Position numbers and translations under genes: made by a program. Shown here piece by piece: positions 1 through 55,736 of a stretch of 64,000 nt of DNA. Origin of the DNA: an uncultured Candidatus Peribacteria bacterium (GTDB lineage Bacteria > Patescibacteriota > Gracilibacteria > BD1-5 > UBA2023); NCBI GenBank assembly GCA_964482035.1, contig CAYZVC010000004.1, positions 19,572 through 83,571 of the forward strand, read 5' to 3'. The notes beneath the pieces are model-generated. The model did not search any database. It worked only from the letters and a program-made list of their open reading frames with translations, and was not told where the DNA came from. How positions within the stretch are numbered: position 1 is the stretch's first letter; each line of letters opens with the position of its first letter.

Positions 1-115
1 TTTCCACCGGAGTTCGGGAATCGGGGAAATATTTGAGGAACGCGAACGAAACCACCGCGGAGGCGGCAATGGAAAACACGACGGTGGACGCGACGATCGC
101 CTTTACGGGAGACAT
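1..115 (-). CDS. 5' end of a membrane/secreted protein (only the N-terminal signal-anchor is in the window)
   Basis: Complement ATG at 113-115 followed by MSPVKAIVASTVVFSIAASAVVSFAFLKYFPDSRTPVE, a hydrophobic N-terminal helix; open to the window edge. Confidence 0.4.
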   Translation of the reverse strand, partial: MSPVKAIVASTVVFSIAASAVVSFAFLKYFPDSRTPVE

Positions 116-248
116 GCGGAATCGGGTTAAGTACGATGCCGGATTATACGGCTTCGAAAACGCGGAGCAAGGGCAACCTTGAAAATGCCCGTTTCTTGCC
201 TCGCGTACGCGCATGTGGTACCATGTGCGAAACGTATCACACCGATCC

Positions 249-3200
249 ATGGCGGAAATACCGACGTACGAACCTTCCGAAAAACGCGACTCGCGTTCGG
301 CGGCCGACAAACCGGCGGCGGCCGAGTCTTTGCCGAAGGGCGAGGCGAGAGAAAAAACGCGCCAAGTCCCCGAAAGTCTCCGCGAAGCGTTCAAATCCGC
401 GGCGGACGTGGCGATTTCCCGCGTCATGGCGAAAGTGGCCTCGAAAGAAGGCATGCCGACGGACGCGAAAACCTACCGGGCCGAAGTCGTCGCCGTGCTC
501 CGCGAAACGGACGCGAAGCTTCCGGAAGGACACGCCCTCAAAGGAACCACCGACCTCATCGTCGAAAATTTCCTCACCCCGGAAGAAAAAGGCGCCGAAC
601 TCATCCGCACGCTGCTCGAAAAAGGGTATTCCGTCGCGAAAGAAGGGAAAAAACTCAACGCCGGACCGAAAGAATTCGACGCCGGAATGGGCGCCATCCG
701 TTCGACTTTGGGATTTTCGATAGACCTCGCGAAAAAGAAGCCGGAGAAAATCGGCGAATTCATGAACGAAATCAAGAAGGTCCCCGAAGCGGCGAACCTT
801 CTTTCCCGTTTCCCGGACATGGAGACGGTGCTCGTGAAAATCCTCCCGGAAATCGCGAAAAACGTCGACAAGCAGACGTTCCTTGCGGCTTTCGATTCGT
901 TCGCTTCCGAAATCAAGGCCCCCGCGCTTTCGCTTCTGAGCGGAAAGGAGCTGGGCGACAAGGAACGCGGCGAAGTGGCGATGAAAATCGTCCACGAATC
1001 GGCGCGTCTCGTAGGATCGGCGCTCACGAAAGAAACCGTGAAGAGCGGAATCGAAGGCATCTCGACGCTTTCCGCCGTGAAGAACAATCCCGTCGCTTCG
1101 AAACTCGTCGAGCTCGTGAAGCGCCCGGAACTCTCCGACGACGACCGTTTCGCGCTCGTGAAAAAAGCGAACGAAGGCATCGCGGTCTTTACGAAAAATC
1201 CCCCGAACGAAGCCGAGCTGGAAAAATACGCGAATTCGGCGGCGGAACTGGTATCTTCCCTTTCGAACAAGCTCCCCAAAGCGCTCGTGACGGACGTCAT
1301 GGCCTCGATGTTCCGTCCGGAAGACGGCGGCAACGGGAAATGAGTGGAAATCAAAAGCAAAACCGAACTCGTGAAGCTTCTTTTCGACAATAAGTCGAAG
1401 CTTTTCGAAGCGCTCAAAAGGTACGCCCTGGGAGAACTCTCGACCATGAAGGACGTCGTGCGTTTCGTCGTCGAAGAAAGGGTTCTCGAGCAGAACATCG
1501 GCATGGCTAAGGGCGAACTCGTCGAACGCCTGAAAAAGGTCATCGAAATCGATCTCGCCTCGTTCTCGGAAAAACTCAAAGCGAAACTGGCTTCCGAAAT
1601 GGCGAAACCCGAATCGAAGGCCGTGTCGGAGGTTCCGCAGAACGCGGCGTTGGGAGACGCCCTTTCGAACAAGGTGCTCGCCGAAATGGCCGCTACGTTC
1701 TTCTGACCCGACCGCCCCGCGAGGATTACGAAAGAACTTTTGGCCGACCGGGCTTCCAAGGCGGCGGCCGCGGCCATCGATTCGATGCCGGGCAATACGG
1801 TGAAAATCTGAGGCGCGGAAGTTCCGAAACACGCCCTGAAAACCGCAGTAACGGGTATCGAATTCCGCCTCTTCGCGGCCGACGCTTTCGGCAAGCTCGC
1901 CGGAGAAGCCGGAAAAAGCGGCACTTCGATGGAGAAGCTCGCTTCGATCGTCGCGGAAATCATGAAGGATCCGCTCGGGAACAAATACGTGGGCGAACGC
2001 ACCCGCCAATTCGCTATCGACGCGTTTTATGCGATGCCGGCCACCGACATCGCGGAAACCGTATCGAACAACCTCGAGACTTCCGGGCTCGCGAAATACC
2101 TGAAAAAAACCGACGGGACCGTCGCGGTCGACAGACGCGACGTGACGGAAATGGTCAACATCCTCCGCGACGGGGAAATCCTTCCGAAAGAGACGCTCAC
2201 GAAAATCCTTTCCAAAGAAAATCTCACGCCGCCGGTGAACGTATTGAAAATCGTGGGCGACCTCTTGAAATCGCTTTCCAAGGAACAGCTCACGCTCCTT
2301 TTGGACAAGGCTTCCGCAAAGCGTCCCGACGGTTCGCCGAGCCTTCTGGAAAAAGGCCTGTCGATCGAACGCAAAGGCGATGGAAAACCCATGTCGAAAG
2401 AAGACGCGGTAAAAATCGCGGAGCTCGTCATGGAAACGGTCGGAAAAACCGATGCCGATTCGAGAAAACCGCTTTTCGAAGCGATCGGAGCGAACCCGAA
2501 ATCCGCGGAATACGGACTGTCGTTCTTCAAAGCGTTCGGAAAAGAACGCGTACTGAAACTCGTCTCCGAACATTCGGACGTTTTCGGTGAAATTTTTTCC
2601 TGAAAAATCGATCCGAAACGGGATGCGGCGAAACTCCTCCCCGTCGCGGTCGACGTCGCGTACGCTTCGGACTTCGCGTCGGATTCGAAAATGATCGCCG
2701 AAACGAAGGCCGCGTTCCCGGAGATGAAAGGACTCCTCGAAATGGAAGTTTTCTGAGGAACCGCCGTCGACCATCTCGATCGGATCCGCCATGCGGTCCC
2801 CAAAGAAAAAGCGCTCGCGTTCGTAAACGCCCATTCGGCGGAACTCGCTTCCCTCGCGGCGAATTTCGACAAAGCCAAGGCCGCGAAGCTCTGAGCCGAA
2901 TTCCTCCTCTCGGTAGACAAGGACAAGCTCGCGGTACTCGCCGATCCTTCGAAACTTACCGGTGCGGAAAAACTCGCCGCCGAGAAACTTCCGCAGGTGC
3001 GCGACGTTCTCGAATCGTTCAAAAAGGAAAGCGTCACCACTCCCGACGGAAAAACCGTTTCGCGCCTCGACGCGCTCATCGAAGCCGGAACCGCAGCGAC
3101 CGAAGGCAAAATCGACAAGAAGCGCGCGGATTTTCTCGCCGGAGAAGCATTCGAACTCGTTTCGCGCCTCTTGCCCGCTTTGGGCGACTGGAAGATGCCG

Positions 3201-3404
3201 GAAGGCGGAGGCGAAACGCCGGAAGCCGCCAAGAAATTCAAAAAGGAATTCGTTTCCAACAATCTGGGCTTCGTCATCGGACAAGCGCTCCCCTACCTTT
3301 TCGGACGCCCAACGGAAAAAATAGTGGGCGCCTATTTCGCGGACGCCGGAAATAAGGAAGCGTTCATAAAGACGCTTTCGGCGACGCTGGTAGGAAAATC
3401 TTAA
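249..3404 (+). CDS. large (about 1050 aa) Ala/Lys/Glu-rich helical hypothetical protein, no domain recognised
   Basis: ORF-track pieces 213-1343, 1344-1706, 1929-2603 and 2997-3404 share one frame and are joined by in-frame TGA (1341, 1704, 1809, 2601 and two more); ends TAA 3402-3404; start is ATG 249 or 213. Confidence 0.7.
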
Positions 3405-3423
3405 AGCGTTACCGACTTCGGAA

Positions 3424-5082
3424 ATGGTTCGAATCACGAAAAAGGCGAAGGATCTGGGAACCTTCGCAGCAAAGAAGATCACGAAACTCGAATCTTCGGA
3501 AATCAGCGTTTTCTGATGGGTCGCGGCGTTCGCAGCGGTAGTTTGCGTACGAAACTTTTTGGAAACCTGGTCGACGGGAAACTACGGCATGATGGCCTCG
3601 ACCGAACACGTCGTGACGAATTTCGTCTTTTACCACACCTTCCTCTCCTATCTTTTTCCGTTTCTCGGACTCGCGGCGATCGTTCGGATATTCACGGGAG
3701 AAAAGGCTTCGAAAATTCTCAATTTCGTCCTTGTTCTCTCCGCGATGATCTTCGTCGCGCCCACGGTCGACCTCGTCGTTCGGGCCTTATCGGACCATTC
3801 GACCCCCATCGTCTACGACCCCGTCACGGGCATCACGTCCATTAAGGATCTTTTGACGTACTGGCTCGATTTCGCGTTTTTCTGACCGTACGGAATCTTC
3901 TTCGGCGGGGACGTGAACGCCATGCGTTCGGGGCAGAACCTCGGAATCAGGGTGGAAGTGAACCTCATCCTCGCTATCGCGAGTTCGTACGTATTTTGGA
4001 AAACCCGCGACGCGGTAAGAACGATTGCCGCGTTCTTCGTCATGAACGCCGGATTCATGGTCTACGTTTCGTTCCCGATGTTCCTCTGAGTATTGGCATG
4101 AGCGTTTCCCACGTCCGAGAACGCGAGGATGTTTCCGGAAGCCATAGGCACCGGGCTGTGACCGAGCGATTTGGCGTACCTGCTTTCGGTGACCGCGCTT
4201 TCCGCGTATTTGCTCCGTTCGGTAAATTCGAAGAAATTCGACGCGCTTCTTTCGAACCTCAGGGCCGGCAGGGTCGCCAACGTTCTCATTCTCTACGTCT
4301 TCTGACTATTCCTCGGCTTTCAGACGGAAGGCTCGACATTCGGATGGACCGATATTTTCGACCCCATGGCCGTTGCCGTCGTCGCGCTCGCACTCGTGCT
4401 CGAATGGGCGTGCGCCGTCGGGCATAATGATTTGGAAGATGAGGAAGGCGACAAGCTCTCGATGTCGCACCGGCCGCTGCCCTCGGGCATGGTGGGCCGC
4501 GGGGAAATGGCCTCGTACGCGCTGCTCGCCGGCGCGGGAGCCCTGTATGCCGCCAATCTCGCCGGACATGCGGTTTTCGTCGCGGTGGCGTTTAAGATGG
4601 CGCTCCATTACCTCTATTCGGGCCGTCCGTTCCGACTGAAGGCGATTCCTTTGGTTTCCAATTTCGTATTGTCTCTCTCGTACCTTTTGACCGTACTTGC
4701 GGGATACCTTCTGGTATTCCCGAACGGGCTCGCGAATTTTCCGTCGTGAGCCGCCGCGCTCGTTCTCGTCACCTTCACGCTCGCAACGCCGTTCAAAGAC
4801 CTCAAGGACGTCGACGGGGACCGCAAGGTAGGGGTCCGGACGATTCCCACGCTTTTCTGACTCGAAAACGGCAAGCGAATAATAGCCGCCCTCTGATTCG
4901 CAGCGTTCGTTTGGATTCCTTTCGCCATGCCGGAATACGCTTCCCGGATTTGGATTCCTTCAATCGTTTCCGGCTTGGCGTTCGGCTGGGCGGTAACTCG
5001 AAAAAACTACGACGAACGCAAGGTTTTTTGGACCTACTACGCCTATGCCGCGACCTGCGCGCTCATCCTGATCCTGACCTAA
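3424..5082 (+). CDS. UbiA-family prenyltransferase with a long extra N-terminal membrane domain
   Basis: Single frame from ATG 3424 to TAA 5080-5082 through several in-frame TGAs; Asp-rich motifs NDLEDEEGD and KDLKDVDGDRKVGVRTIP; hydrophobic helices throughout. Confidence 0.8.
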
Positions 5083-5196
5083 TGAAACAGATCGATTGGA
5101 ACGCGGTCGCGTTCGGCATCCTCATTCTCGTGCTCATAAAAAACGCCGCGTTGAACGCGGCGAGTTCGAGTTTGTTAGACGTTTGGAAATAGAGTC

Positions 5197-6003
5197 CTAG
5201 TCGCGTATCCGGATCTTCTCTACCGACAAGCATTTCCCATCTTCGATTTCGACCAATACCGCATGCAGCGATCCGGGGCCGTCCGTAAGGGGTTCCGGTT
5301 TTTTAGAGAACATCGAAATGCCCGTGAGCATCGCCGGGAGCCGGCCTTCGAACTCTTGCCCGATGGCGCTGTGGAGCGGACCGGTCATGCCGACGTCGGC
5401 GATCATTCCGGTACCGGATTCGAGAACGTGTTCGTCATTGGTCTGCACGTGGGTATGGGTGCCGTACACGAACGTGGCGCGACCGGAAAGGTATTCGGCC
5501 ATGCAGTAGATTTCGGCGGTGGTTTCGCGGTGGAAATCCACGAGGATCGCGTCGAATTTTTCATTCGCGAACGAAGCGAGGATTTCGTCGGCCTTGAGGA
5601 ACGGGTTGTACACGTCGTCCTTCAAAAAGGTGGATGACATGAGATTGATGACGAGAACCTTTTTGCCGTTCTTTTCGATGACGCGGGTGCCCTTCCCCGG
5701 AATCGGGTATCACGGAACCTCGTAGTAGTTCGCCGGGCGGATCTGGATGGAATCGGGGTTGGCGAGTTCGTCGGCCAAATCCTTCACGTGGGAAAAAACG
5801 TGGTTTCCGCCAGTGAGGCAATCGAAACCGAGGTCCTTCATAAATGCGACGTGTTCGGGAACGGGCCCCTTGCCGCTGGTAATGTTCTCGCTGTTGGCAA
5901 TAACGAAATCCGGCGAAAAATCCTCACGGATTTTCGGAAGGTGCCGGGCGACGAGTTCGCGCCCCATGCGTCAGAAGACGTCTCAGAATATGAGGATTTT
6001 CAT
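5197..6003 (-). CDS. ymdB: YmdB-family metallophosphoesterase (2',3'-cyclic-nucleotide 2'-phosphodiesterase type)
   Basis: Pieces 5197-5640 and 5710-5967 are in frame; N-terminus MKILIF-G-DVF-G-RMGRE has both G encoded by TGA (5983-5985, 5971-5973); GNHVF motif; TAG stop. Confidence 0.85.
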
Positions 6004-6046
6004 GCGGCGATTGTACGGAAACCCGACGAAATGGGAAGAGGGAATT

Positions 6047-6505
6047 CTACGCCTCAATCCCGAGTTCCCTCGCGATCTTCGCCGCGTGTCCGGTGGCTTT
6101 GACGTTGCGCCATTCTTTCACGATTTCGCCCTTGGAATCCACGAGGAACGTCGAGCGGATGACGCCCACGTAGACCTTGCCGTAATTCTTCTTCTCGCCG
6201 ATGACGCCGAGCTCGTCGTGGAGGGTCTTGTCGTCGGAAATGAGGTCGATGCCGAGCGCGCACGAATCCAAGAACTTGGCATGGCTCTTTTCATCGTCGA
6301 GCGAAACGCCCACGATAGCGATTCCCGCATTCGCGAAAGTGGCCTTGGCACGCGTAAAATCCTGCGCTTCGAGCGTACAGCCCGGAGTGTTGTCTTTCGG
6401 GTAGAAGTACAAAAGCGTCCGCGGCGACGCGGCGAGGATTTCGCCAAGTTTCGCGTCGCGCGCCCCGTTTTGGGAAACGACGCGGTAGGTCTTGTTCAGG
6501 TCCAT
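6047..6505 (-). CDS. bcp: thiol peroxidase / peroxiredoxin Bcp
   Basis: Intact 152-aa ORF with YFYPKDNTPGCT active-site motif; TAG stop. Confidence 0.9.
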   Translation of the reverse strand: MDLNKTYRVVSQNGARDAKLGEILAASPRTLLYFYPKDNTPGCTLEAQDFTRAKATFANAGIAIVGVSLDDEKSHAKFLDSCALGIDLISDDKTLHDELGVIGEKKNYGKVYVGVIRSTFLVDSKGEIVKEWRNVKATGHAAKIARELGIEA

Positions 6506-6564
6506 AAGAAAAGGGCGTTATTGGTAACGCCCCATCCTATCCTATCGGTTGGATAATCCAAACC

Positions 6565-7170
6565 TTATCCGCGCTTTTTCGTCTTATGGAAGACGAACCA
6601 AGCGAAGAACGCCACCGTTGCCACGGCCGCCACGATGCTGGCTTCGTGTGAATAGGTCCGTACGGTGGCGATGACGCCTTCGCCGAAGGCGTCACCGAGC
6701 CACACGAGGAACGCGCACCAAATGGTGGCGCCCACGAACGTCAGCGCGGCGAATATCGGGTACGGCATCCTGAATATTCCGGCCGGAATGGAGATGAGGT
6801 GGCGAACTACCGGAATGAAGCGCCCGAGAAAGGTATAGAGCTTGTCGTTCTTATCGAAAAGCGCTTCGGCTTCTTGGTATTTTTCCTTTTTGATGAGGAA
6901 ATACTTGCCGTATTTTTCAATGAACGGCTTGCCCACGTACTTGCCGAGCAGATAGTTGGCGGTGGCGCCGAGAAGGCTTCCTGCGCCTCAGGCGAGAACC
7001 GCGAGGTACGGATTGAGATTTCCCGCAGCGGCCAAGTACCCGGCCGGGATCATGACGAGTTCCGAAGGAACGGGAAACAGGCTCGACTCGAGCGCCATGA
7101 GAAAGAAAATCCCTGCGTACGAAAGTCCGCCGAAGGCGTTGATGACGGATTCTACGAGTTGTGCGAACAT
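6565..7170 (-). CDS. DedA-family membrane protein
   Basis: Pieces 6565-6936 and 6988-7170 are in frame and joined by TGA 6988-6990; motifs [11 protein letters not shown] and [16 protein letters not shown]. Confidence 0.85.
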
Positions 7171-7195
7171 ACGATTCGGAAGTGAAGGGATTTGA

Positions 7196-7810
7196 CTACA
7201 GCTTTACGAACGCGGCGATCGACATGGGAACCGTGAACAGTTTGGAATCGCGGCATTCTTTTCGCGAAAGGTACCGAAGCGCGACGGAAGCGAAGATCGA
7301 GCCGACCGCGAAGCCCACGGCGACGTCGCCCGGATAGTGGATTCAAGCCAGGACCCTTGCGCAGAGCATGGGAATGCCGAACGCCAGAAGCGTGAACGCC
7401 AGGGCCTTGTTTTTGAAAATCCGATACGCCGCGACGAACGAAGCGCCAGCGAAGATGCCGTGTCCGGAAGGAAACGAATTGTCGGGCAAATGGTTGATGA
7501 GCGGCGCGATGGACGAGGCGGTTTCGGGACGCGGACGTGCGGGAAGTCAGAAATTCAACACCCAATAGAGCAGGAATGCGAAAATGACGGCGTAAAAGAA
7601 CGCGAGGGCGTCCTTTTTCAGTTCGGCGTCGTCGTTGCGAAGGAAACGCGCTTTCAGCCACAATCCCACGAGCACGAAGGCGACGAGCACGACTTCGATG
7701 TCGGCGAAAGCGTGCACGAGGCCGGTCTGCCAAGCGGACGAAGGATCGACGAGCGAGCGGAAGGACGCCAATGCGGCGGAGTCGAAGGACTGGAGGGTAT
7801 CGAGAATCAT
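7196..7810 (-). CDS. PAP2-family phosphatase (undecaprenyl-diphosphatase / lipid phosphatase type)
   Basis: Frame continues through two TGAs; PAP2 motifs SFPSGH and HYPGDV; TAG stop 7196-7198; start is ATG 7810, with an alternative TTG at 7858. Confidence 0.8.
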
Positions 7811-7944
7811 GACGGAAAAGTTACCCGTCGAGAATAAGGAGAATCCCCAAAACGCCAAGGCGAGTCGCCTATTTTGAAATAGGGATTGCCGAAACGTTCG
7901 CGGAAGGCTAAAATCCCAGTGAAAAACCGCTAAATCCCAAAAAA

Positions 7945-8350
7945 ATGAAACGTCCGAAAAGCATCCGCCGACTCTCGGGATTCACGCTCGCCGAACTCAT
8001 CGTCGTGATAACGATCCTTGCCATACTCGCCACCATCGGATTCCTCGCCCTTTCCGGGTACTCGGAAGACGCGAAGGAAGCTTCGGTAAAGACCAACGTC
8101 CGATCCGTATATACCGCGATCAATTCGGAAAGCGCGATTACGGGGAATTCCCCTCGGTACTACGTCGTGCACGATACCGGAGCGGCGCTCTCGGGAGCCT
8201 TCATCACCATAGACGGAAATCCGGTGGCGCTTACCGGAGGCGACTGGAACGTTTCGGGAACGAATTATTCCGCCGGAAAACCCGACTTCGTAAAATTGAA
8301 AATGAATCCCGCCAAATTCCGAATATCCGGAGCGGGGACGGAAGGGTTTC
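7945..8350 (+). repeat. pilin N-terminal module, paralogous copy 1 (copy 2 at 28869-29285)
   Basis: By-eye DNA and protein alignment with 28869-29285: GFTLAELIVV.TILAILATIGFLALSGY, KTNVRSVYTAI, SPRYYVVHD, LTGGDWN..GTNYSAG.PD.VKLK.NP.KFRI are shared. Confidence 0.7.
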
Positions 8351-9255
8351 CATTCCTCTCCGTCGCGCATGCCGCGAATTACCAGGAAATGATCGCCGGA
8401 GCGGCCGACGTAATCCGCGGCGGAACTTCAGGAAGGCCCCGTCCATTGGGATTCCTTCAGGTGGCGGGCGTTTCTCCGATAACGAAAATCGCGAGCGTCG
8501 CCGGAAACCTTCCGTCCGATCAGGCGGGAAATCCCATGGGGCTCATCAAAGATCCCAGCGATTCCGCGACGGCGACCGGATTCGTCGTCGACGGGAAAAC
8601 CATCGGCAACGTTACGAAAACCGTTTTTTCGAAAAGCTGTCTGGAAATCAAGAACGCCGGAGCGTGAAGCGCCGACGGAACGTACTCCATCGATCCCGAC
8701 GGCGAAGGATGAAACGCACCCATCCAAGCATATTGCGACATGACTACCGACGGCGGAGGATGGACGCTCACTTTCTACGCACCCTCGATGCCTTCGGACG
8801 GAAGCGCGGACCTTACGGCGAACCAAGTCGTCATCAAGGGATTGCCATTAAAGACCTATACGTCCGATTCGGCAACGTACCCCGTGCTTACCAACGGTAC
8901 GGTAAATTCCTATTCAGAAGTGCTCTTCAAATGAGGCAATTCAAGCTGGGTGGGCCAAAAAGGCGCATGGAGCCGATTCGCGACCTTTCCTTCGGGAACC
9001 ACTGCCATGAGCGTAACGTTCGACGGGGTGCTCAATGCCGACGGAAGTACGGCCCTTTACCATCATTCGAGGGGATGGACGACCGGAACCGTCAACCCCG
9101 CGACCGCGACGTTTTGAATCTGGGACGATGCCGGACAGAGCAACATCTGCTGAGGAAACGGTGTGCCGGGATGAAAGAACTGCCCGTATTTCGTACACAC
9201 CACGTACTCGTACCACTACGAAGTCGCTTCCCAAAGATGGCTCTTCGTTCGATAG
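7945..9255 (+). CDS. type IV pilin-like protein with a C-terminal fibrinogen-related (FReD-like) domain
   Basis: Prepilin signal RRLSG/FTLAELIVVITILAILA with Glu at +5; frame runs through 6 TGAs to TAG 9253-9255; SCLEIKNAGAGSADGTYSIDPDG...QAYCDMTTDGGGWTL matches the fibrinogen C-domain signature. Confidence 0.8.
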
Positions 9256-11839: not shown

Positions 11840-13552
11840 TTATCCGCGGAGGCCGAAGCGGCGGCGGGTAATGAAGAACCCGATACCGAGCGCGAGGGAG
11901 AGAAGCGCGAGAACCTGGGCCGGTCCGGTCTGGACCTTGGTGGCTTCGGCGTAGTCGGCGGATTCGGTAGTAGCGTCGGAACAGACGGCCTTGACGGCGA
12001 AGTCTTCGTACTTGACGGCGTCCTTGGCGAGGTGGACGGTGTAGGAGGTGACCTTCACGTTTTCCACGAGGACGTAAGCACCGGTGGAATCCTTCTTATA
12101 GACGTTGTAGCTGAGGGCTTCCGGGATGGCATCCCAGGAGAGGACGCTCTGGTCGTCGGACTTGGCGACCTTGAGGCCGGAGACGTTGGCGATGGAACAG
12201 GTTCCGGCGGAGTTGAGAGCGATGTCTGCGGTGAAGACGTCGGATTCGGTAGCGGTGATCGGGGATCCGGCTACGTCGAGTGCGGCGATCTTGAAGAAGT
12301 ACTTGCCCGGTTCGAGACCGTCGACGTACCACTTATAGGTGGAGCCGGAAGCGGAAGCGCCGGTGCCGGTGAAGGCGATTCTGGACTTTTCGAAGGTGAT
12401 GGATTCCTTGGTGAGGGCGCCGGAGTCGGTGCCGTAGGAGAACTTGAACTTGGAGACGGATTCTACCGGGTTCACGACGTCGAAGGTGAAGGTGACGCGC
12501 TTGTCGCCGGATTCGATCTTCACGTTTTCGTACGCCATCTTCGGAGCTTCGAGGACGGTAATGGTTTCCGCGGCGGTCTTGACGGTCTTCTTTCCGAGGT
12601 CGGACGTGAGGGTCACGTCGATCGGGTAGGAACCGGAAGCGGTAGGAGCGGTGAGGGTGCCTACGTAGACGCCTTCGGAGGTTCCGCCGACGGTTACGTT
12701 ACCGGCGGTGACGCCGGAGGTCTGTTCTTTGAAGACTTCCACGCTGTCGCCGAGGGAAACGGAAACTTCCTTGAGCTTCGGTTCTGCGGTGACGGTGACG
12801 TTGAGGACGGCTCCGGACTTGACGGTCTTGCCTTCCTTCACGGTGATCGACTTGAACGCCGGGCCCTTGTCGGCAGCGGCCTTGAAGGAGATCTTTCCGG
12901 AGGTTCCGGCTTCCTTGTCGGAACCGTCGAGGACCTTGATTTCGAGAACGTTGTTTTCTTCGGTGATGCCCTTGAGCTTGTAGAGGATGGCGCCCTGGTC
13001 GTCGGACTGGCCTTCGCCGGTCTTGGTGCCGTTGAGGTAGACCTGGAACTTGGAGTTCTTCTTGGTGGTACCCACGACGTCGGTTTCGGCGCCCGAGATG
13101 GTGCTGCCGGATTCCGGTGCGGTGACGGTGACGGCTTCCTTGCCGGAAACGCCCGGTCCTACGTCGCCTTCGGTGACGTTGACCTTTGCGGTGCCTTCGA
13201 CCTTGTCGTCGTCGATGTCGATGACGGAGACGGTCATGTTACCAACCTTGGAGAATGCGAGACCCTTCGAGAAGGTCTTGGCGCCCTGGTCTGCGGCAAC
13301 GAAGGTGTAGCCTTCGGCGTACGGGAGGGTGGCCTTGGAGTCGTTGTCGACGGTGACGTAGACGGTGCCGGCGTAGTCGGCGACGTTGCCTCCGTCCTTA
13401 TCGAGGGCCTTGACGGTGAGGTCGAGAGCCTCGCCGACCTTGGCGGACTGGTTTACGGTAAGCGAGAACTTCGCAACCTTTCCTGCAGCGAACACGGCCG
13501 GGTGAGGAAGGAGGAAGGCGAGGGAGAGGAGGGCGGCAAAAAGACGTTTCAT
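11840..13552 (-). CDS. secreted cell-surface protein with Ig-like/FN3-like repeats and a C-terminal anchor signal
   Basis: Signal peptide MKRLFAALLSLAFLLPHPAVFA; beta-rich T/V/G/K repeats; FN3-like LSWDAIPEALSYNVYKK; C-terminus QTGPAQVLALLSLALGIGFFITRRRFGLRG (helix plus Arg cluster); no TGA. Confidence 0.8.
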   Translation of the reverse strand: MKRLFAALLSLAFLLPHPAVFAAGKVAKFSLTVNQSAKVGEALDLTVKALDKDGGNVADYAGTVYVTVDNDSKATLPYAEGYTFVAADQGAKTFSKGLAFSKVGNMTVSVIDIDDDKVEGTAKVNVTEGDVGPGVSGKEAVTVTAPESGSTISGAETDVVGTTKKNSKFQVYLNGTKTGEGQSDDQGAILYKLKGITEENNVLEIKVLDGSDKEAGTSGKISFKAAADKGPAFKSITVKEGKTVKSGAVLNVTVTAEPKLKEVSVSLGDSVEVFKEQTSGVTAGNVTVGGTSEGVYVGTLTAPTASGSYPIDVTLTSDLGKKTVKTAAETITVLEAPKMAYENVKIESGDKRVTFTFDVVNPVESVSKFKFSYGTDSGALTKESITFEKSRIAFTGTGASASGSTYKWYVDGLEPGKYFFKIAALDVAGSPITATESDVFTADIALNSAGTCSIANVSGLKVAKSDDQSVLSWDAIPEALSYNVYKKDSTGAYVLVENVKVTSYTVHLAKDAVKYEDFAVKAVCSDATTESADYAEATKVQTGPAQVLALLSLALGIGFFITRRRFGLRG

Positions 13553-16238: not shown

Positions 16239-16583
16239 TGAAGCAGAATTCGGGATTCCCGATGGAGTCGAATAGAGGGTCGAGCGAGCCATGGATAGGC
16301 TTCTTGCGTACTGGGAATGGGTTGGCGAGCGAAGAGGGCGTGCCTAGTATGGCACGCCCGACCCGGCCCGTCTCCCGGAGCGGAGCCGGCAGGTGGAGCG
16401 TGAGGGAACGATGACTGGAGCCCATGTCGGATATACGAAAGAAAATCTAAGAAATACTCATGAAAAACAATTTTGATGCGAGCTCGGATAAGGTATACTC
16501 CGTCCGCTTTGCATAAAGGAGAAAGGCTATTCCCGCTTCGTATGAAATCTGGGAATGTCCTGTCGCAATTCTTTCAAATTTCC

Positions 16584-18926
16584 ATGGACAAAAGAAATCT
16601 CTCGGAATCCGACATTTGCTCAAAATTCATCACGCCGGCCCTTCATGAAGCCTCTTGGCAAGAATCCCAGATTCGCCGGGAGGTTTCTTTTACGAAAGGG
16701 CGGATTAAAGTGAAATGAAAAACCGTTTCTCGCGGGGAGACAAAGCGCGCGGATTACATCCTGCACCATGCGAACCATCTCCCGATAGCCATCGTAGAAG
16801 CCAAAGACAACTGCCATTCCATCGGGGACGGTATGCAACAGGCTCTCGGTTATGCAGAAACGCTCGACATTCCGTTCGTGTATTCATCAAACGGCGACGG
16901 CTTCCTTGAGCACGATAGGACGAAAAAAACCTGAACGGTCGAACGGGAACTTCGCATGGACGAATTCCCCACTCCCGACGAGCTGTACCGCCGTTACCGG
17001 GTCGCCAAGGGGTTCGATGAAGAAATCGAAAAAACGGTAATGGAGCCGTATTACGAGGACGTTAGCGGAAAGGGTCCGCGCTATTATCAGCAAATCGCCA
17101 TCAACAGAACAATCGAAGCAGTCGCGAAAGAACAGGATCGTATCCTCCTCGTCATGGCGACCGGTACTGGAAAAACGTACACCGCTTTCCAAATCATCTG
17201 GCGTCTCTAGAAAGCGCGCAAGAAAAAACGAATCCTCTTCCTTGCGGACAGGAACATCCTCGTCGACCAGACGATTACGAACGATTTTAAACCGTTCGGC
17301 GATAAAATGGCTAAGATCGAGAACCGCAAAGTAGATACTTCGTACGAAATCTACCTCGCCCTCTACCAAGGCCTCACCGGCGGTGAAGAGGACAAGAACG
17401 TCTTCAAACAGTTCTCGCCGGGCTTTTTCGACCTCATCGTCATCGACGAGTGCCACAGGGGCAGCGCGAGGGAAAACAGCGAATGGCGGGCCATTCTCGA
17501 CTATTTCAAAGGCGCTACACAAATCGGTCTTACCGCGACCCCGAAAGAGACTGAAGACGTATCGACGCATACGTATTTTGGAGACCCTATTTATACATAT
17601 TCGCTCAAACAGGGCATAGAAGACGGTTTTCTTGCACCGTACAAAGTGGTTCGCGTCTGAATGGATGTGGACGAAGGCTGGAGACCTTACAAAGGGCAGC
17701 TCGATTATTACGGCGCCGAGATTCCGGACAAAGTATACGAGCTTGGGGATTTCGACCGGAACATCGTCATCCGGGAGCGTACCGAAGCCGTTGCCAAGAA
17801 AATCAGCGAGTATCTCAAAGCGACAGACCGATATTCAAAAACCATCGTCTTTTGCGTGGATATCGACCATGCCGAACGTATGCGCCAAGCCCTCGTGAAC
17901 GAAAACGCGGACGAGGTCGCGAAGAATCCGAAATACGTAATGCGCATCACGGGCGATAACGAAGAAGGCAAAATGGAGCTCGACAATTTCATCGATCCGA
18001 AAGAACGATACCCCGTCATCGCCACGACCTCGAAACTCCTCACCACCTGAGTGGACGCGCAGACGTGCCGGGTTATCGCCCTCGATGCCATCATCAACTC
18101 GATGACGGAATTCAAGCAGATCATCGGTCGCGGAACCCGCATCAACGAAACCTACGGCAAATACTACTTCACCATCCTCGACTTCCGTAAGGCGACGAAC
18201 AAGTTCGCGGATCCAGATTTCGACGGCGAACCCGTCGTAATCTACAAACCCAAACCCGACGAACCGGTCGACGGCGGCGATGTCTGAACCGTTTGAGACG
18301 AAGACGATGGAAACGGCGGATGAACCGTAATCATCGGGGACGGTACGGGAGGATGAGCCGGTGGAGGACAGAAGAAGATCATGGTCCGCTGAGTGCCCGT
18401 GAGTGTTTCCCAGGAACGGGTCCAATACATCGGACCGGACGGCAAACTCATTACCGAGAGTCTCAAGGACTACTCGAAAAAGAACATCCTCTCGGCATAT
18501 GCGAGCCTAGACGATTTCCTGAACGAATGGAACCACGTCGAACAGAAGCTCGCCGTAGTATCCGCATTGGAAGAAAAGGGCGTATTCTTCGAGGACATGC
18601 AAAAGGAAGTCGGACAAGATTACGATCCGTTCGACATGGTGTGCCACCTGGCGTACGACCGTCCGCCGCTCACTCGCAAACAACGGGCGGACAAAGCGAA
18701 AAAATCCGACTATTTCTCCAAATACGGGGAACAGGCGAAAGAAGTGTTGAACATGCTTCTCGAAACATATGCGGACCGTTGAATCGGTGCGATAGAAGAC
18801 ATGGGCATTCTCACCGTCAGTCCGCTCTCGCGCCTTGGAAAACCCGTAGAAATCGTCACGCTTTTCGGAGGAAAGGCCCAATACAAGGCAGCACTTAGAG
18901 AGCTCGAAGCCGCTATTTACCAATAA
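16584..18926 (+). CDS. hsdR: type I restriction enzyme R subunit (HsdR), carrying one in-frame TAG (possible pseudogene)
   Basis: Pieces 16473-16718, 16956-17210, 17307-17660, 17661-18050, 18051-18287 and 18393-18782 are all in one frame; PD-(D/E)x[29 protein letters not shown] (TGA), EcoEI-R-like C-terminus; about 10 TGA=Gly; TAG at 17208-17210 in [20 protein letters not shown]. Confidence 0.85.
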
Positions 18927-18943
18927 GAAATCCTAAAGGAACC

Positions 18944-20371
18944 ATGTCTAATATTTCCGCGATCGTAAAATCCATTCAAGACACTATGCGCAAGGATGCC
19001 GGGGTCGACGGCGACGCCCAGCGCATCGGCCAAGTATCTTGGATGCTCTTTTTGAAAATTCTCGACGATCAAGATCGTAACCTCGAAGTCATTCTCGACG
19101 ACTACGTTTCCCCCGTGCCCGAGGATTGCCGTTGGGGCAATTGGGCAGCCAACAAAGAAGGGATGACGGGTGACGAGCTCGTGGAATTCGTTAACGAAAC
19201 CCTCTTCAAGAAACTCCGCAGCCTCCCTTATGACGCGAATCGTCCGATGACCGGGATTATCCGCGGCGTTTTTGAGGACTCGTTCAATTATATGAAATCG
19301 GGAACGCTCCTTAGGCAGGTAATCAATAAGATCGGCGAAATCGACTTCAGCAAGAAAACCGAACTCCACGTCTTCAACGACATCTACGAAAAAATCCTGA
19401 GCGATCTCCAATCCGCGGGGAACGCCGGGGAATACTACACCCCCCGTTCGGTTACTCAGTTTTTAGTAGACATGGCGGATCCGAAACTCGGCGAGACCGT
19501 TCTTGACCCTTCCTGCGGCACGGGCGGCTTTCTTACTTGCGCCATCGAGCATATCCGCAAGAACGGCGTACATGAACGCAAGGACGAAGAAACTCTTCAA
19601 AAATCCATCCGCGGAATAGAACTCAAACAGCTTCCGCACCTTCTCGCAACGACCAATCTCATTCTCCACGGTATCGAATGCCCCTCGGGACTCCGTCACG
19701 ACGACACACTTTCGCGTCCGCTCAAAGACTACGGCCCCGAAGATGCGGTAGACGTAATCGTCACGAATCCGCCCTTTGGCGGACAGGTAAAACCCGGCAT
19801 CATTCACAACTTTCCAAGTCAGTTCCAGACTGCGGAAACGTCGTTTTTATTCATGGTGCTCATCATCAATCTGCTTAAATCCGGAGGACGTGCCGGTGTG
19901 GTATTGCCGGATGGCTTCCTCTTCGGCGAAGGCGTGGCCACCCGCATCAAGGAAAAACTCCTTTCCGACTGCAACCTCCATACCGTCGTCCGCTTGCCGA
20001 ACGGGGTATTCAACCCGTATACCGGCATCACGACCAACCTCCTCTTCTTCACGAAAGGCGAACCGACGAAGGAAGTCTGGTATTTCGACCACCCGCTTCC
20101 GGCGGGTATCAAGAATTACAGCCGATCGAACCCGCTCCGTATCGAGGAATTCGATTTGGAAAAATCCTGGTGGAACGACCGGAAGGAAACCGGAAACGCC
20201 TGGAAGGTCGGCATCGACGAAATCAAGGCGAGAGATTACAATCTCGACATTAAGAACCCGAATCGGAAGGAAGAGAAAGAAATCTTGGATACGAAAGAAC
20301 TCATCGACGCTATCGAGGCGAATTTCAAGGAAGCGGCGGCAATTTTGGAGAAAATTAAGACGAGCGTGTAA
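18944..20371 (+). CDS. hsdM: type I R-M N6-adenine DNA methyltransferase subunit M
   Basis: Intact 475-aa ORF; GEYYTPR, DPSCGTGGFL, NPPFGG motifs; no TGA. Confidence 0.95.
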   Translation: MSNISAIVKSIQDTMRKDAGVDGDAQRIGQVSWMLFLKILDDQDRNLEVILDDYVSPVPEDCRWGNWAANKEGMTGDELVEFVNETLFKKLRSLPYDANRPMTGIIRGVFEDSFNYMKSGTLLRQVINKIGEIDFSKKTELHVFNDIYEKILSDLQSAGNAGEYYTPRSVTQFLVDMADPKLGETVLDPSCGTGGFLTCAIEHIRKNGVHERKDEETLQKSIRGIELKQLPHLLATTNLILHGIECPSGLRHDDTLSRPLKDYGPEDAVDVIVTNPPFGGQVKPGIIHNFPSQFQTAETSFLFMVLIINLLKSGGRAGVVLPDGFLFGEGVATRIKEKLLSDCNLHTVVRLPNGVFNPYTGITTNLLFFTKGEPTKEVWYFDHPLPAGIKNYSRSNPLRIEEFDLEKSWWNDRKETGNAWKVGIDEIKARDYNLDIKNPNRKEEKEILDTKELIDAIEANFKEAAAILEKIKTSV

Positions 20372-20372
20372 T

Positions 20373-21695
20373 ATGGAAATGCAAACGGTAAAGATAGGCG
20401 ATCTGCTCAAAAGGCGAAAAACGCCAGTACCCATTCTTGACGATAGCCTTTACAGGCGCGTGACCATTCGGATGAATAAACAAGGGGCTGTAAAGAGGGA
20501 TGAGGTTCTTGGAAAGGACATCTGAACAAAACAACAATTCCTCGTCAAGGAAGGCGACTTCCTGATATCCAAAATCGATGCGAGAAATGGGGCTTTCTGA
20601 CTGGCCTCAAAAGATCTCGACGGCTCAATTATTACGTGAAGCTTTCTCGCATTTGAGATTAATACGGGGATCGTCGACCGGGAATATTTCATTTCTTTTG
20701 TCAATTCCTGAGAGTTTCAGGACATATGCAGAAGAAACAGTTCGGGCACGACGAACAGAAAAAATGTCGATGAGACGAAATTTTTAGATGCCGAAATCAC
20801 GGTTCCCGTTTCGATCGAAGATCAGAAAAGGATCGCGAACAAAGTGGGCCACTTGAACGGAATGATGGTTGCCGCAAGGAGCGAGCTGGAGGCTGCGGGC
20901 GAATGAATCAAAAACCTCCGCTCCTCCATCCTCCAAGACGCCATCCAAGGAAAACTCGTGCCGCAAAACCCTTCCGACGAACCGGCCAGCGTACTTTTGG
21001 AGCGGATACGGAAAGAGAAGGAAACGCTCGCGAAAACCGGAAAGATCAAGAAGCAAAAGAACCTCCCGCCGATTTCGCCGGAAGAGGTGCCTTTCGAGTT
21101 ACCGAAGGGGTGGGCATGGGTGAGGCTATGAGAAATACTCACCTACGTTCAACGTTGACCATCCGCTATTTACGCAGAACTGAGTGAAGTTGAGATAATT
21201 AATCAAAAATGCATCCAATGGAGTGGATTGGATTTACACGTAACGAAATACTACAAGACGGATCTAATATCAAAGTTGGATGAATGTCGTTTTATTAGAA
21301 GTAACGACATACTTTTAAACTCAACCGGAACATGAACTATTTGAAGGTGCCTTTTGGTGAATCAAATAAAAGAAAGAACATATATTGCCGACAGTCACGT
21401 AACCATACTAAGATCGTACATTTCAAACAGTTACATCAATCTATTCCTACGAACCCCGAGGATCCAAGGTCTCATAAACGGGGTTGGCTGATCCACGAAT
21501 CAAATAGAATTGAGCAAGGCCATGATTGAATCCCTCCCGATCCCCGTACCACCCATGTCGGAACAGATTCGTATTATCGCAAAAGTTAGTGAACTAATAT
21601 CCGATTGCGACAAGTTGGGAAAAACAGCCGAACGATCATTAAAAAACAGCGAAAAATTACTGGAAAGCAGTTTGGTCAAAGTCTTTAAAAACTAA
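20373..21695 (+). CDS. hsdS: type I R-M specificity subunit S
   Basis: Starts 1 nt after the hsdM stop; 10 in-frame TGAs fall on G in SSGTTNRK-type, VRL-G-EI, NSTGT-G-TI-G-R and G-STNQIELS contexts; two TRDs plus the conserved central and C-terminal helices. Confidence 0.9.
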
Positions 21696-21701
21696 TGCCA
21701 T

Positions 21702-23690: not shown

Positions 23691-23712
23691 TTCATCAATA
23701 ACCGCTTATCAA

Positions 23713-28868: not shown

Positions 28869-29285
28869 ATGCCGCCCGCAAAAACCCCCCATACGAAGCC
28901 CGCGGTTAAGAAAACCCTGAGTTTCCGCGGCTTCACCCTCGCCGAACTCATCGTCGTCGTCACCATCCTCGCCATTTTGGCGACGATAGGTTTTTTGGCG
29001 CTCTCCGGCTATACGCAGGACGCCAAGGACGCCGGCGTGAAAACCAACGTCCGTTCGGTCTATACCGCAATCACCGCGGAAAGCGCGGTATCCGGAAATT
29101 CGCCCCGGTACTACGTCGTCCACGATCCGGACGCGGCCCTTTCGGGCGGAATCGTCTTCGTCAGCGGAAACCCGAACGTCCTTACCGGAGGCGACTGGAA
29201 TACGCCCGGAACGAACTATTCGGCGGGCAATCCCGATTACGTGAAGCTGAAGCTGAATCCTGAAAAATTCCGCATCGCTTCGGCG
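28869..29285 (+). repeat. pilin N-terminal module, paralogous copy 2
   Basis: See 7945-8350; similarity stops where the C-terminal domains begin. Confidence 0.7.
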
Positions 29286-30203
29286 TTCTGATTCTTCGAC
29301 TCGGCACAAGCGTTCGATACCAAACAGCCGGTCATTGGCGCGGCGGACATGACGGAAGGATCCTCGGGCGCAAGGTTGACCCGTTCGGTCGGCTACGTTC
29401 AAGTCGTCTGAGCGCAGCCTTCCGGTTCGTACGTGGTCGTGGGGAATTACCCGACGACGGTTTCGGGTTCGGTCTCGGGACTCGTGAAAGATCCTTCGTC
29501 AAATAGCCTTACGGGCGCGGTGGTCGAGGGCGGTACTGCCGGCTCCTCTTCGACGAGCGGCCCGGTGACGGTAACGGTTTCGTCGAATTCGTACGACTAC
29601 GACATGTTCGTTGCCGCAGGATCCCCCTCCGGACCGGTTTCCGTTACGGTAACGCTCGCTCCGGGGACGGTGCTCTGAGCTTCAACGACCTCGAAGTACG
29701 CCTTCGATACGGGAACGGGATGGGCTGCGGGCTCGACGCTCAAGCTCGTCGTCTGAACCGGCGCGTACGTCAGCGGACGCGGCGGAAACGGCGGCGGTGC
29801 CGGGCGTTCGTACGCCGGAGACGCTGGAGGTCCTGCGTTCCGTGCGCAATACCCCATCTCGGTCACGAATTTTTGAACCATCCAATGAGGCGGAGGAGGA
29901 GGCTGATCGAGGCCGGACCTCTCTTGGTGAGGCGGCGGCGGTTGAGCCGGCGCGGACGGATGAGTGGGATGAGTGGGCGGAGGATACGACGACGGCCAAT
30001 GACCCAACGGCCGCGTAGGAACGCTTACGGCATGAGGAATCTGAGGATTCTACTACGGAGGAGGCGGGGGAGGACCCGGTGCGGCAGGAGCGGCATCGGC
30101 CACCATCGGACCCCAGCCCGGCTGAGCCGGCGGAGCGGCGGTAACCGGAAATGCGAAAGTCACTTGGACGGCAGCGGGAACGAGATTGGGGGCGGTGAAT
30201 TAA
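28869..30203 (+). CDS. type IV pilin-like protein, paralogue of 7945-9255, with a different Gly-rich C-terminal domain
   Basis: SFRG/FTLAELIVVVTILAILA prepilin motif; pieces 28869-29291, 29433-29678 and onward share one frame to TAA 30201-30203; 15 in-frame TGAs by my count, 13 of them in the GGGGG-type tail. Confidence 0.8.
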
Positions 30204-37300: not shown

Positions 37301-37576
37301 GAGGTTGATGACCCCGACGTTGTTGGTGCTGACGGATTTGAACGTCGAAATGCCCTTTACCGACGGCAGCTTGTCCTCAATCTTCGAAATGACCTGCTGT
37401 TCGATGGTTTCGGCGTCGGCGCCCGGGTAGACGGCGGTGACGTTGAAGAACGGAAGGTTCACTTCCGGAATGGATTCCTTCGACATCGTCGTAAAACTGA
37501 CGTAGCCGATGGCCGCGAGCAATATCATGACGATGAGGAGGAACGGCCTAAAGGCCAAAAAGCGTTTTTCGAACAT
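34373..37576 (-). CDS. RND-family efflux transporter permease (AcrB/HAE type)
   Basis: Intact 1067-aa ORF with 12-TM / two-large-loop architecture and typical N-terminus FLAFRPFLLIVMILLAAIGYVSF; no TGA. Confidence 0.9.
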   Translation of the reverse strand: MFEKRFLAFRPFLLIVMILLAAIGYVSFTTMSKESIPEVNLPFFNVTAVYPGADAETIEQQVISKIEDKLPSVKGISTFKSVSTNNVGVINLEFQRGVDKGTAYADLKSAVDEVRASLPTGVSDIAVTKTDPKDMPVYSFSVMGPYYPSVLFDKVGGMEDELKKIPGVDKVAVVGKYVSQVEVEFDYDKLRGYNLRLPVLVQMLSSSIEQKPVDKKKLEGNLYGFEVRTYGRTSGDVDERLSKFRDFLENVPLVNQNGNVLRLKDLAKVSVTHPFYQRLSYVNGENAVTFMVYKSPGSDILKVIGGVKDYLAGKSAEFAKDSIKEQEMFSQEISIKQTFNAFLDGFRDTSVLIVIIATIFLGLRGSFAVAITFPFVYLLSFIALKQMGYTFNSIVSVALNLSLGIMVDNLIVMAQGAEDGMRKGYSKFRAIQHSLSIYWKPLLIGNLVTISMFLPIGFVLSGKMGEFMKFLPVTVNLTLAFSIVVAFVFLPLVLSYMDLKVRKGDGHGKLEKFFSRFEKPFDRMYERILKTPKFFITAFYALFVFVIIAFAKFGAADFMPLTDKDNIYVNVSYSKDTGMEANQAATAKLSDLIEEFFSEKHPGVVKNLEISLGENFSQSALDNTVYRSSFNPDLTKFNVVLTDTDSREEKDNAVHMYSELHEFLGEKIAADPELSKRVSDVTVMIQKSGPSEGKDVTFNLSLSGSEGGIEKLAGEYEKMLGELKAIDGTYGWTSSLQHTNGKVEMVYDLDRLAQLGIAPAELDAFVYSIHQKGQSNALTEYKGNGISITSLGDFGKDVIPVRGYVAYQSGSGASVDFKNLVIPGTNAYLSEVLKETRLQPQLKSFQHLDGNLVVRVEANKRNDLTLSEATAKINAIVAKYPAVQMAYGADVKDMEQSGKDLGMAFLVGFVLMFAILVLNFGNFRQPGILVATMPLFLTGALAFLLLSGLTMSFMVDLGFFGLIGVGLAHIIYLVNRFNELFESSGGKGDLDAIIVESVKSRLEPVFLTTAITALGLFVLAASDEMWRPFALAFAGGLIVGTTITLVFIPCALKVLYREDVKPKKKSA

Positions 37577-37597
37577 GGAAGGAATCGGATACGGGCT

Positions 37598-45718: not shown

Positions 45719-45852
45719 ATGGGATGGGGTTACGGCACCGGTATAATCCGATTTCCGGGGAAGGAATCGGAAAAAAAAAGAAAACGGTGGCGAGACTGGC
45801 TGGCAAGACGTTAAAAATTCCGTATCATCAGGCGAGTAATCCCGCATCGAAC

Positions 45853-55513: not shown

Positions 55514-55736
55514 GAGTTCGTCGAGCCCAGAAGCGTCGTTTCAGTCCCCCGTTTCTTCTTTACGGGGAGCGGAGTACGGTCATGTCGGAAGATTCGTCGT
55601 CATAAGGGTCGCGCGGAGTTTCGAACTTGGCAATCCTAATGCGATTGCGAAAAAGTCAATTCCCTTCCATTTTATCACGTTTTCGAGTTCCGCGCATCTT
55701 TTCGCTTGCCGGATTTCGAAATTCGGCTAGGCTTTG

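Follow-up and report, generated by a model that had tools for sequence, protein, structure and literature searches.

Does a single gene of an uncultured Candidatus Peribacteria bacterium encode a type IV pilin that carries a fibrinogen-related domain (FReD) at its C-terminus and, if so, what might such a protein be used for? The question is raised by positions 7945..9255 (forward strand) of a 64,000-nucleotide stretch of contig CAYZVC010000004.1 (assembly GCA_964482035.1), the whole of which is here called the window. An earlier reading of the bare letters (hereafter, the original prediction) had proposed the fusion of a pilin with a fibrinogen-like module, and the architecture was correctly recognised: profile matches are found on both parts within one reading frame. 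We judge it probable that the product is a modular type IV pilin which, assembled into a pilus and placed at its tip, displays an adhesin for a surface ligand, plausibly a glycan, of other cells.

The first point to be settled is whether there is one protein at all. Under the standard code, the frame that opens at 7945 stops at amino acid (aa) 240, while under code 25 the complete coding sequence (1311 nt, ATG at 7945, TAG at 9253-9255) yields 436 aa and includes six in-frame TGA codons. These are located, all on the forward strand, at aa 241 (8665..8667), aa 256 (8710..8712), aa 330 (8932..8934, in a conserved LFK-G-G motif), aa 391 (9115..9117, where the aligned column holds Gly, Ser or Thr), aa 403 (9151..9153, a Gly of a C-G-G motif) and aa 410 (9172..9174, within G-G-KNCP). 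In an alignment with standard-code homologues (Burkholderia ubonensis, Pseudomonas phage PaBG), all six fall on Gly-compatible columns: those at aa 241 and 256 are read as Gly, and the column of aa 403 is invariantly Gly across all the homologues from Burkholderia, phage and metagenomes. TGA is recoded throughout the window: the summed length of open reading frames (ORFs) of at least 150 aa rises from 46.8k to 78.1k aa once TGA is counted as sense. The assumption of the original prediction that the TGA-joined frame is translated as one protein was thus upheld by the Gly columns, by the ORF statistics and by homology that reaches the C-terminal end; TGA as Gly and a single 436-aa frame are established here by alignment. 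The source organism is a code-25 (Gracilibacteria-class) bacterium whose relatives possess type IV pilus machinery.

Public databases carry this gene solely as a 240-aa protein (P0001; 100% identical, on contigs of up to 209 kb), which is exactly the product to be expected if the first TGA were a real stop, only the pilin were made and the downstream FReD-like frame were a dead remnant. We regard this explanation as practically negligible: (i) the ORF statistics of the entire window favour sense TGA; (ii) the six TGA codons keep the frame across 196 codons and stand on Gly columns, one of them invariant; (iii) an identity of 36-46% to intact homologues persists up to the terminal LFVR; and (iv) relatives display the same TGA pattern. 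P0001 is, instead, a code-11 truncation (240 instead of 436 aa), and so is P0021 (locus L084; 258 instead of 527 aa), which has lost a FISUMP-type head. A database fragment of a close relative (P0121, 80% identical) terminates precisely at the LFK that precedes the TGA of aa 330.

Within the 436-aa protein, three successive N-terminal parts can be distinguished: (i) a class III (prepilin) leader peptide, aa 1-12 (7945..7980), MKRPKSIRRLSG, whose last residue is Gly-1; (ii) a mature pilin stem, aa 13 to ~220 (7981..8604), which contains neither cysteines nor TGA codons and is delimited by the structural model, the alignments and a paralogue; and (iii) a linker, aa ~221-231 (8605..8637), corresponding to the NVTKTVFSKS region, at which the pilins encoded in pilus gene clusters end. 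The original prediction had claimed a canonical prepilin N-terminus (FTLAELIVV, Glu+5), and rightly so. The motif RRLSG/FTLAELIVV provides Gly-1, Phe+1 and Glu+5, the junction between leader and mature protein is read as MKRPKSIRRLSG/FTLAELIVVITILAILATIGF (a basic leader, a hydrophobic N-terminus and Glu+5), and both Pfam N_methyl (25.0 bits, cut-off 21.2) and TIGR02532 (23.7 bits, cut-off 16.3) match above their cut-offs. A sequence search of the PDB aligns aa 6-64 of our protein with pilins of known structure, among them Geobacter PilA, PilE1 and MshA. The AlphaFold2 model of P0001 (our protein's own aa 1-240; 64 family sequences) reaches a predicted local distance difference test score (pLDDT) of 84.3 and consists of a hydrophobic alpha-1 helix (aa 15-66) followed by a beta-sheet with strands at aa 74-187, that is, the lollipop topology; confidence collapses at aa 226-234 (pLDDT <50). 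Residues 1 to ~220 are a complete type IV pilin.

A genome scan with a trimmed 10-sequence alignment confined the stem family to Patescibacteria, Gracilibacteria and Peribacteria-labelled metagenome-assembled genomes (MAGs); elsewhere, only the alpha-1 segment was matched. The best match among GTDB species representatives has 78% identity. The closest relatives are two high-GC, TGA-recoded MAGs with stems 72-78% identical, and in one of these close relatives (locus L006) a T2SSE ATPase gene adjoins the pilin-FReD gene in divergent orientation. The homologues of low-GC Gracilibacteria are stem-only pilins of 199-206 aa, 30-32% identical from the leader to about residue 220. One of these relatives shows the stem in its pilus context: in locus L008 (Candidatus Gracilibacteria MAG-139), a stem pilin gene lies between genes for a PilB-type T2SSE (397 bits), a T2SSF (PilC) and a PilT-type T2SSE. 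The pilus cluster of this locus (125-7744) also contains, placed after the PilB-type ATPase gene and before that of the PilC-type platform or the reverse, a gene for a 633-aa protein with a SpoIIE-type phosphatase domain, which may have a regulatory part in the pilus system. Also related is P0028, a stem-only pilin of 276 aa from the same sample series, which ends at a TAA stop, contains no TGA and is a candidate major pilin. The idea that all database relatives of ~250 aa are major pilins was considered and rejected, as P0001 and P0021 are code-11 truncations and P0028 is genuinely 276 aa long.

It could be argued that the stem belongs to a type II secretion-like pseudopilus or to a competence (Com) pilus, the head of which would capture substrates or DNA-associated material. 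Weak N-terminal matches to GspG, GspH, ComGC and ComGD point in that direction, as does the Gracilibacteria literature, where pili are mainly treated as DNA-uptake devices. But these Gsp and ComG matches are limited to the common alpha-1 segment and lie far under the family cut-offs, the related clusters contain a PilT-type retraction ATPase, and this stem bears heads of the adhesin type. We accordingly give the proposal very little credence, and the stem is treated below as that of a type IV pilus adhesin.

The C-terminal half of the protein is the fibrinogen-like head. The fibrinogen C-domain signature quoted in the original prediction, SCLEIKNAG..GTYSIDPDG..QAYCDMTTDGGGWTL, is located at aa 231-275 (8635..8769, forward strand); this segment, YCDMTTDGGGWT, includes Cys232 and Cys264 and corresponds to the A-subdomain of FReDs, or GGGWT_bact segment. 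It matches (i) NCBIfam NF040941 GGGWT_bact (fibrinogen-like YCDxxxxGGGW domain) with 77.7 bits (cut-off 30, E 4.8e-22, model positions 1-45/46); (ii) Pfam Fibrinogen_C (PF00147), the search proposed as a check, with 27.4 bits (gathering cut-off 22, model positions 2-46/221); and (iii) the sequences of XEEL, intelectin, FIBCD1, tenascin, fibrinogen beta and ficolins in the PDB, with XEEL at the top (E 6e-6). The match to the signature is far above chance. All of these similarities are short: both profile matches span only the first ~45 residues of the head, the PDB matches are limited to aa ~230-276 (aa 230-276 for XEEL), and a profile of the head subfamily finds similarity in the PDB in the first ~50 residues only. 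The signature itself was recovered above cut-offs, but by sequence only the A-subdomain matches canonical FReDs. FReD-like domains are not rare in bacteria, for which a dedicated NCBIfam model exists; bacterial GGGWT proteins gave 718 matches at E <= 0.01, and most of them have only the GGGWT segment in common with our protein. The GGGWT region also matches phrog_10681, a phage family with no assigned function.

Beyond the A-subdomain, the head (aa 232-436; 8638..9252, forward strand) has relatives of its own, as indicated by tblastn, by invariant columns and by Foldseek. Over its full length it is 42-46% identical to the C-terminal domains of secreted He_PIG Ig-repeat proteins (e.g., Burkholderia ubonensis WP_060059773), and 36% identical to the stand-alone, 223-aa gp217 of phage PaBG (97% of the query, E 4e-19, tblastn). 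Across the pilin, phage and Ig-stalk carriers, 41 invariant columns are dispersed along the entire head; among them are W335, W342, G377-W378, W393, C402-G403-G404, K411, C413-P414, H424 and L433-F434-x-R436. The four cysteines of the head (232/264 and 402/413, the latter in the conserved CGG...K.CP motif) are compatible with the two-disulfide layout of FReDs. The segment WDD...C402-x10-C413, conserved in the subfamily, bears a superficial resemblance to the DxD...C...C layout of the FReD at locus L006, and a terminal LFVR strand closes the head. Endings of this kind are common: 104 of the 136 GGGW proteins retrieved end in Arg or Lys, most often as FVR, FIR or YVR, with hydrophobic residues before the last one, an ending which corresponds to the last strand of canonical FReDs. 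As to canonical FReDs on the same stem family, that of L006 covers positions 8-183/221 of the Pfam profile and aligns with our head by hhalign (probability 98.7%, E 2e-16, 113 columns) until about 65 residues past GGGWT, and P0003, another relative, has a clearly canonical FReD (114 bits). According to these alignments, aa 232-436 are one portable domain whose FReD affiliation is well supported in the A-subdomain; the rest is a divergent bacterial and phage subfamily of the PaBG gp217 type.

Some phage relatives deserve separate mention. In PaBG (locus L086, 223239-230760), the gene for gp217 is situated directly 5' of a pair of large, co-oriented 'putative adhesin' genes, whose products have 1029 and 1231 aa, and FReD-like proteins may be accessory receptor-binding components of this jumbo phage. 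The cyanophages S-RIM14, S-ShM2 and S-SSM2 also contain GGGWT segments.

The fold of the head was modelled on a homologue, P0122, which is 43-46% identical to our head. Its AlphaFold2 model has a mean pLDDT of 67.5; the A-subdomain scores 70-90, as does the core over its first half. In a Foldseek search, the top 47 PDB neighbours are all of the FReD type (probability 1.0) and include XEEL, intelectin-1, ficolins, FIBCD1, angiopoietin, tenascin and fibrinogen beta; XEEL is the best match (E 1.7e-5, template modelling (TM) score 0.34-0.36). Among predicted viral structures, PaBG gp217, labelled 'Fibrinogen C-terminal domain', is the best match (E 1.4e-11, TM 0.57). Our head is ~75 residues shorter than the intelectin fold. 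On the basis of this model, an overall FReD fold of the head has reasonable, though loose, support.

Is this head the only one that the stem carries? The window contains a second, paralogous modular pilin gene (28869..30203, forward strand; 444 aa, 15 TGA), identified by stem homology and, for its glycine-rich Gp38-like head, by PF05268 and phrog_2056. The stems of both proteins are 55% identical over aa 1 to ~225 (E 6e-78). The head of the paralogue matches the Gp38 phage long-tail-fibre adhesin (PF05268) with 39.3 bits (cut-off 25, profile 7-216/218) and PHROG 2056 ('tail fiber protein; host specificity') with E 4e-11, scores that its Gly-rich composition could inflate. The fusion of a pilin with a Gp38-like head may be more unusual than that with a FReD. 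In relatives, the same stem bears Gly-rich, LamG, FISUMP, FGE-sulfatase, He_PIG, RCC1 and canonical FReD heads; paralogues with differing heads coexist within each genome, and their alpha-1 segments are near-identical. A recent gene conversion or cassette mechanism between the two pilins of the window was rejected, given their 74% nucleotide identity over 348 nt and their unrelated upstream regions.

The swapping of heads on one stem is hence apparent from comparison of the encoded proteins, and our gene is one of a repertoire, made of a conserved stem and interchangeable heads, that probably sets or broadens the range of targets. As the database entries break off at the first TGA of each gene, public protein collections conceal most of these heads. 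A more far-reaching version of this idea holds that it is the host-range repertoire of a code-25 Gracilibacteria episymbiont or predator, with heads traded with phage receptor-binding modules and proteobacterial surface proteins, and that the FReD-like head is a true lectin which, by its specificity for an envelope glycan of the host, helps to decide which bacteria can be attached to; this we put forward tentatively, as a possible but somewhat doubtful extension.

The following mechanism is proposed for the modular pilin: (i) a prepilin peptidase encoded elsewhere in the genome would cut the leader after Gly12; (ii) by means of its hydrophobic alpha-1 helix with Glu+5, the ~210-aa stem would be incorporated into a type IV pilus, the product of PilB/PilC/PilT machinery like that of related Gracilibacteria; (iii) the ~205-aa fibrinogen-like head would be held outside the filament by the short flexible linker; (iv) the protein would be a low-abundance pilin, most likely situated at the tip because of the bulk of its head; (v) the head would recognise a surface ligand of another cell, most plausibly an envelope glycan of a bacterial host or prey; and (vi) retraction of the pilus would draw the two cells together. 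Pilus assembly, tip location, adhesin role and glycan ligand are what we infer; 'lectin' and 'tip of the pilus' are words chosen by analogy, and glycan binding by the head is plausible.

Several results weigh against this mechanism, or against parts of it. Neither pilus machinery nor a prepilin peptidase was detected in the window by a Walker-A regular expression and three batches of Pfam profiles, a search that left out the ORFs at 34373-37576 and 47631-50993. When the stem model was compared with the PDB by Foldseek, no significant structural neighbour of its globular part was obtained, for which reason the pilin assignment rests on the N-terminal signature, the topology and homology. As for the head, the support for its fold derives from the model of the homologue P0122, in which aa 234-295 have a pLDDT <50 and whose agreement with the FReDs of the PDB is loose (TM 0.3-0.43, root-mean-square deviation ~10 Å). 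The structure prediction recommended in the original prediction has, in consequence, a divided outcome: the homologue's model matches only FReDs in the PDB, and it does so with those low scores and that stretch of low confidence. Finally, neither phmmer nor the subfamily profile nor hhalign found FReD similarity reaching into the P-subdomain, which in animal FReDs contains the calcium and ligand sites; in the P0122 model, the corresponding region has a pLDDT <50. Because the similarity stops short of this subdomain, lectin activity is without support from conserved binding residues.

This last point bears on an alternative which keeps the architecture but makes the head something other than a lectin, its ligand being a protein or a peptide (as for fibrinogen gamma-C and the FReDs of angiopoietins) or some other non-glycan target. 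No P-subdomain with the acetyl/glycan pocket known from ficolins and FIBCD1 can be recognised in our head, and the subfamily has conserved motifs of its own (those listed above from W335 to H424). Furthermore, the sister head on the paralogous pilin resembles Gp38, a protein that binds outer-membrane proteins, and the von Willebrand factor A (vWA) head of Streptococcus sanguinis PilB binds proteins. Against these arguments stand the closest structural neighbours, which are carbohydrate-binding FReDs and intelectins, the numerous conserved Trp, His and Gly residues, which suit sugar binding, and the precedent of Saccharibacteria for lectin-like pilin heads and glycan-dependent binding. All in all, a non-lectin head appears to us unlikely, if worth serious consideration, and a glycan-directed adhesin remains the preferred reading.

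A further alternative concerns the position of the protein in the filament: it could be the shaft (major) pilin, each subunit bearing a FReD-like head, so that the pilus would be a multivalent lectin fibre. Over its full length, the stem is homologous to the pilins encoded in clusters, which are presumably the major ones, the alpha-1 segment hardly differs across paralogues, the gene has its own promoter-like site and sits amid housekeeping genes, and Raynaud et al. (PMC8179133) allow a shaft location given a flexible linker. Nevertheless, heads of 205 aa, one to each subunit of ~210 aa, would probably not fit into the helical packing without clashes, as was the case in a model of S. sanguinis PilB. 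There are, in addition, several differently headed paralogues per genome and a stem-only pilin of 276 aa in the same community, and since these coexist, one major pilin plus several accessory adhesin pilins is the arrangement that fits. A shaft pilin seems quite improbable in this light, and an accessory adhesin pilin at the tip continues to be favoured.

Is the architecture new? Of the InterPro entries mentioned below, IPR012902 stands for the prepilin motif and IPR002181 for the fibrinogen C-terminal domain. More than 1,200 modular pilins in 264 architectures have been catalogued, and S. sanguinis PilB (a pilin plus a vWA adhesin) has been characterised (PMC8179133); Dataset S1 of the same paper lists the architectures IPR012902-IPR002181 (8 proteins) and IPR012902-IPR013545-IPR002181 (2 proteins). 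Our protein agrees with the definition of a modular pilin (Raynaud et al., 2021) in having a full stem, a short linker and a head that also exists without a pilin (in PaBG and Burkholderia). At least 13 further examples of pilin plus fibrinogen module were retrieved, many of them in TGA-recoded lineages. MDQ7022692.1 (P0082), from a Candidatus Gracilibacteria MAG, is a pilin-GGGWT protein that NCBI names 'fibrinogen-like YCDxxxxGGGW domain-containing protein'. Our protein shares its two-module architecture with the IPR012902-IPR002181 proteins such as this one; among the latter, the region after GGGWT is highly variable, and the heads of other pilins are less similar to ours than are PaBG gp217 and the Ig-stalk proteins of Burkholderia (36-46%). 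In any case, searches of the literature found neither a pilin-FReD fusion that had been characterised nor experiments with a GGGWT protein of any bacterium, nor anything pertinent on the evolution of bacterial FReDs; the original prediction knew of no characterised fusion either, although the architecture had already been catalogued (PMC8179133). Five distant pilin-GGGWT homologues (P0083, P0086, P0088, P0091 and P0093) show many Trp where Gly is expected, e.g., in WYQWFVWDG, and have therefore evidently been translated with code 4 instead of code 25, a second systematic annotation artefact in these lineages.

The best-known modular pilins are PilB of S. sanguinis and PilC of the same species, the latter consisting of a pilin and a concanavalin-A (ConA)-like lectin module (Shahin et al., 2023, PMC9934059). 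In both of them, as in our protein, a complete pilin with a class III signal peptide is joined by a short linker to a C-terminal module that is not pilus-specific; in the S. sanguinis proteins the head mediates adhesion, and a tip position has been proposed. Our protein is different in its head (FReD-like versus vWA or ConA-like), in its source organism, a code-25 Patescibacterium, and in being encoded by an orphan gene outside a pil locus. Within the Patescibacteria, type IV pili are reportedly encoded and also expressed by Gracilibacteria (PMC11452946), and the minor pilins PilX1 and PilX2 of TM7x (Nanosynbacter lyticus), a cultivated saccharibacterial episymbiont, carry lectin-like heads; deletion of pilX2 halves host binding, which is sugar-sensitive (PMC11623550). 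Both are, like ours, patescibacterial pilins with a large C-terminal module of lectin-like type, but their heads are a beta-jelly-roll and an RCC1 beta-propeller, not FReDs. Their genes, moreover, belong to pil loci, and their N-termini are without the canonical PilD signal peptide that our protein has.

With the animal FReD lectins (ficolins, FIBCD1, tachylectin-5A) and with intelectins/XEEL, our head has in common the signature C...G.Y.I......YCDM..GGGWT of the A-subdomain, two pairs of Cys able to form disulfides and, at the C-terminus, a hydrophobic strand with a final Arg. On the other hand, alignment by sequence is limited to ~45 residues, our head is the shorter one at ~205 aa, a Ca2+/ligand P-subdomain cannot be recognised in it, and the carrier is a pilin instead of the collagen-like or coiled-coil oligomerisation stalk of the animal proteins. 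PaBG gp217 (YP_008433589.1, 'putative fibrinogen domain-like containing protein') has the same motifs through to the C-terminus, but is a stand-alone protein of 223 aa with no pilin stem and without the first A-subdomain Cys. A similar logic is found in the MAT fibres of Bdellovibrio bacteriovorus, in which conserved stalks carry exchanged lectin-like or tail-fibre-like tips for prey recognition (PMC10769870). These fibres are, however, trimeric and beta-helical and not pilins, so that the likeness is one of logic and not of homology; no FReD tip is described in that paper.

Regarding its surroundings, the modular pilin gene is an orphan, flanked by a PAP2 gene and by apparent yidD, rplT, rpmI and infC, the last four called by eye from ORF translations without a profile test. 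About 30 nt 5' of its start codon lies a candidate sigma-70-like promoter (7886..7914, forward strand; TTGCCG, 17-nt spacer, TAAAAT), recognised by consensus match; two sites of this kind were found, versus 0.8 +/- 1.0 in shuffled sequences.

Elsewhere in the window, type I restriction-modification genes occupy ~16300-23700 on the forward strand: HsdR-like pieces (ResIII, Helicase_C, EcoEI_R_C) at 16317-17210 and 17307-18926, and HsdM at 18944-20371, followed by a 662-aa HATPase_c_3 protein at 21702-23690. Third-position GC is ~0.5 at about 20-26 kb versus ~0.7 in the rest of the window, and because of this lower value the 20-26 kb stretch suggests an acquired defence island. Several large ORFs whose coding statistics are good have no Pfam match (33-3404 (+), 11840-13552 (-), 45724-47568 (+) and 54371-55678 (-)); among their products are one of 1123 aa and another of 570 aa, the latter with a signal peptide and a membrane anchor at its C-terminus. 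On the reverse strand there are also a HlyD-like membrane-fusion lipoprotein gene (37598-39484), beside an ORF of 1067 aa (34373-39484 region) whose N-terminus looks RND-type transporter-like, a call made without a profile scan, and a gene for a secreted GH114-like glycoside hydrolase (53471-54274; 28 bits, cut-off 27).

What does the gene mean for the biology of these bacteria? Modular pilin adhesins, lectin-headed patescibacterial pilins and the pilin plus FReD architecture are already in the literature; our gene extends that work, and a lectin-type head on a patescibacterial pilin will not surprise the specialist. Of greater interest are the repertoire of swappable heads, the Gp38-like one included, the link of the FReD-like head with a phage gene located beside putative adhesin genes, and the fact that such heads are hidden by code-11 truncation: with the wrong genetic code, public pipelines keep a 240-aa stem and systematically miss the functional adhesin heads. 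What is known of host recognition and attachment by ultrasmall Patescibacteria comes largely from a few cultivated Saccharibacteria. The modular pilin and its paralogue are concrete candidate determinants of host specificity, which could be expressed as probes for hosts, and they suggest that, in organisms of the Gracilibacteria class, a single pilin stem is diversified by receptor-binding heads taken from elsewhere.

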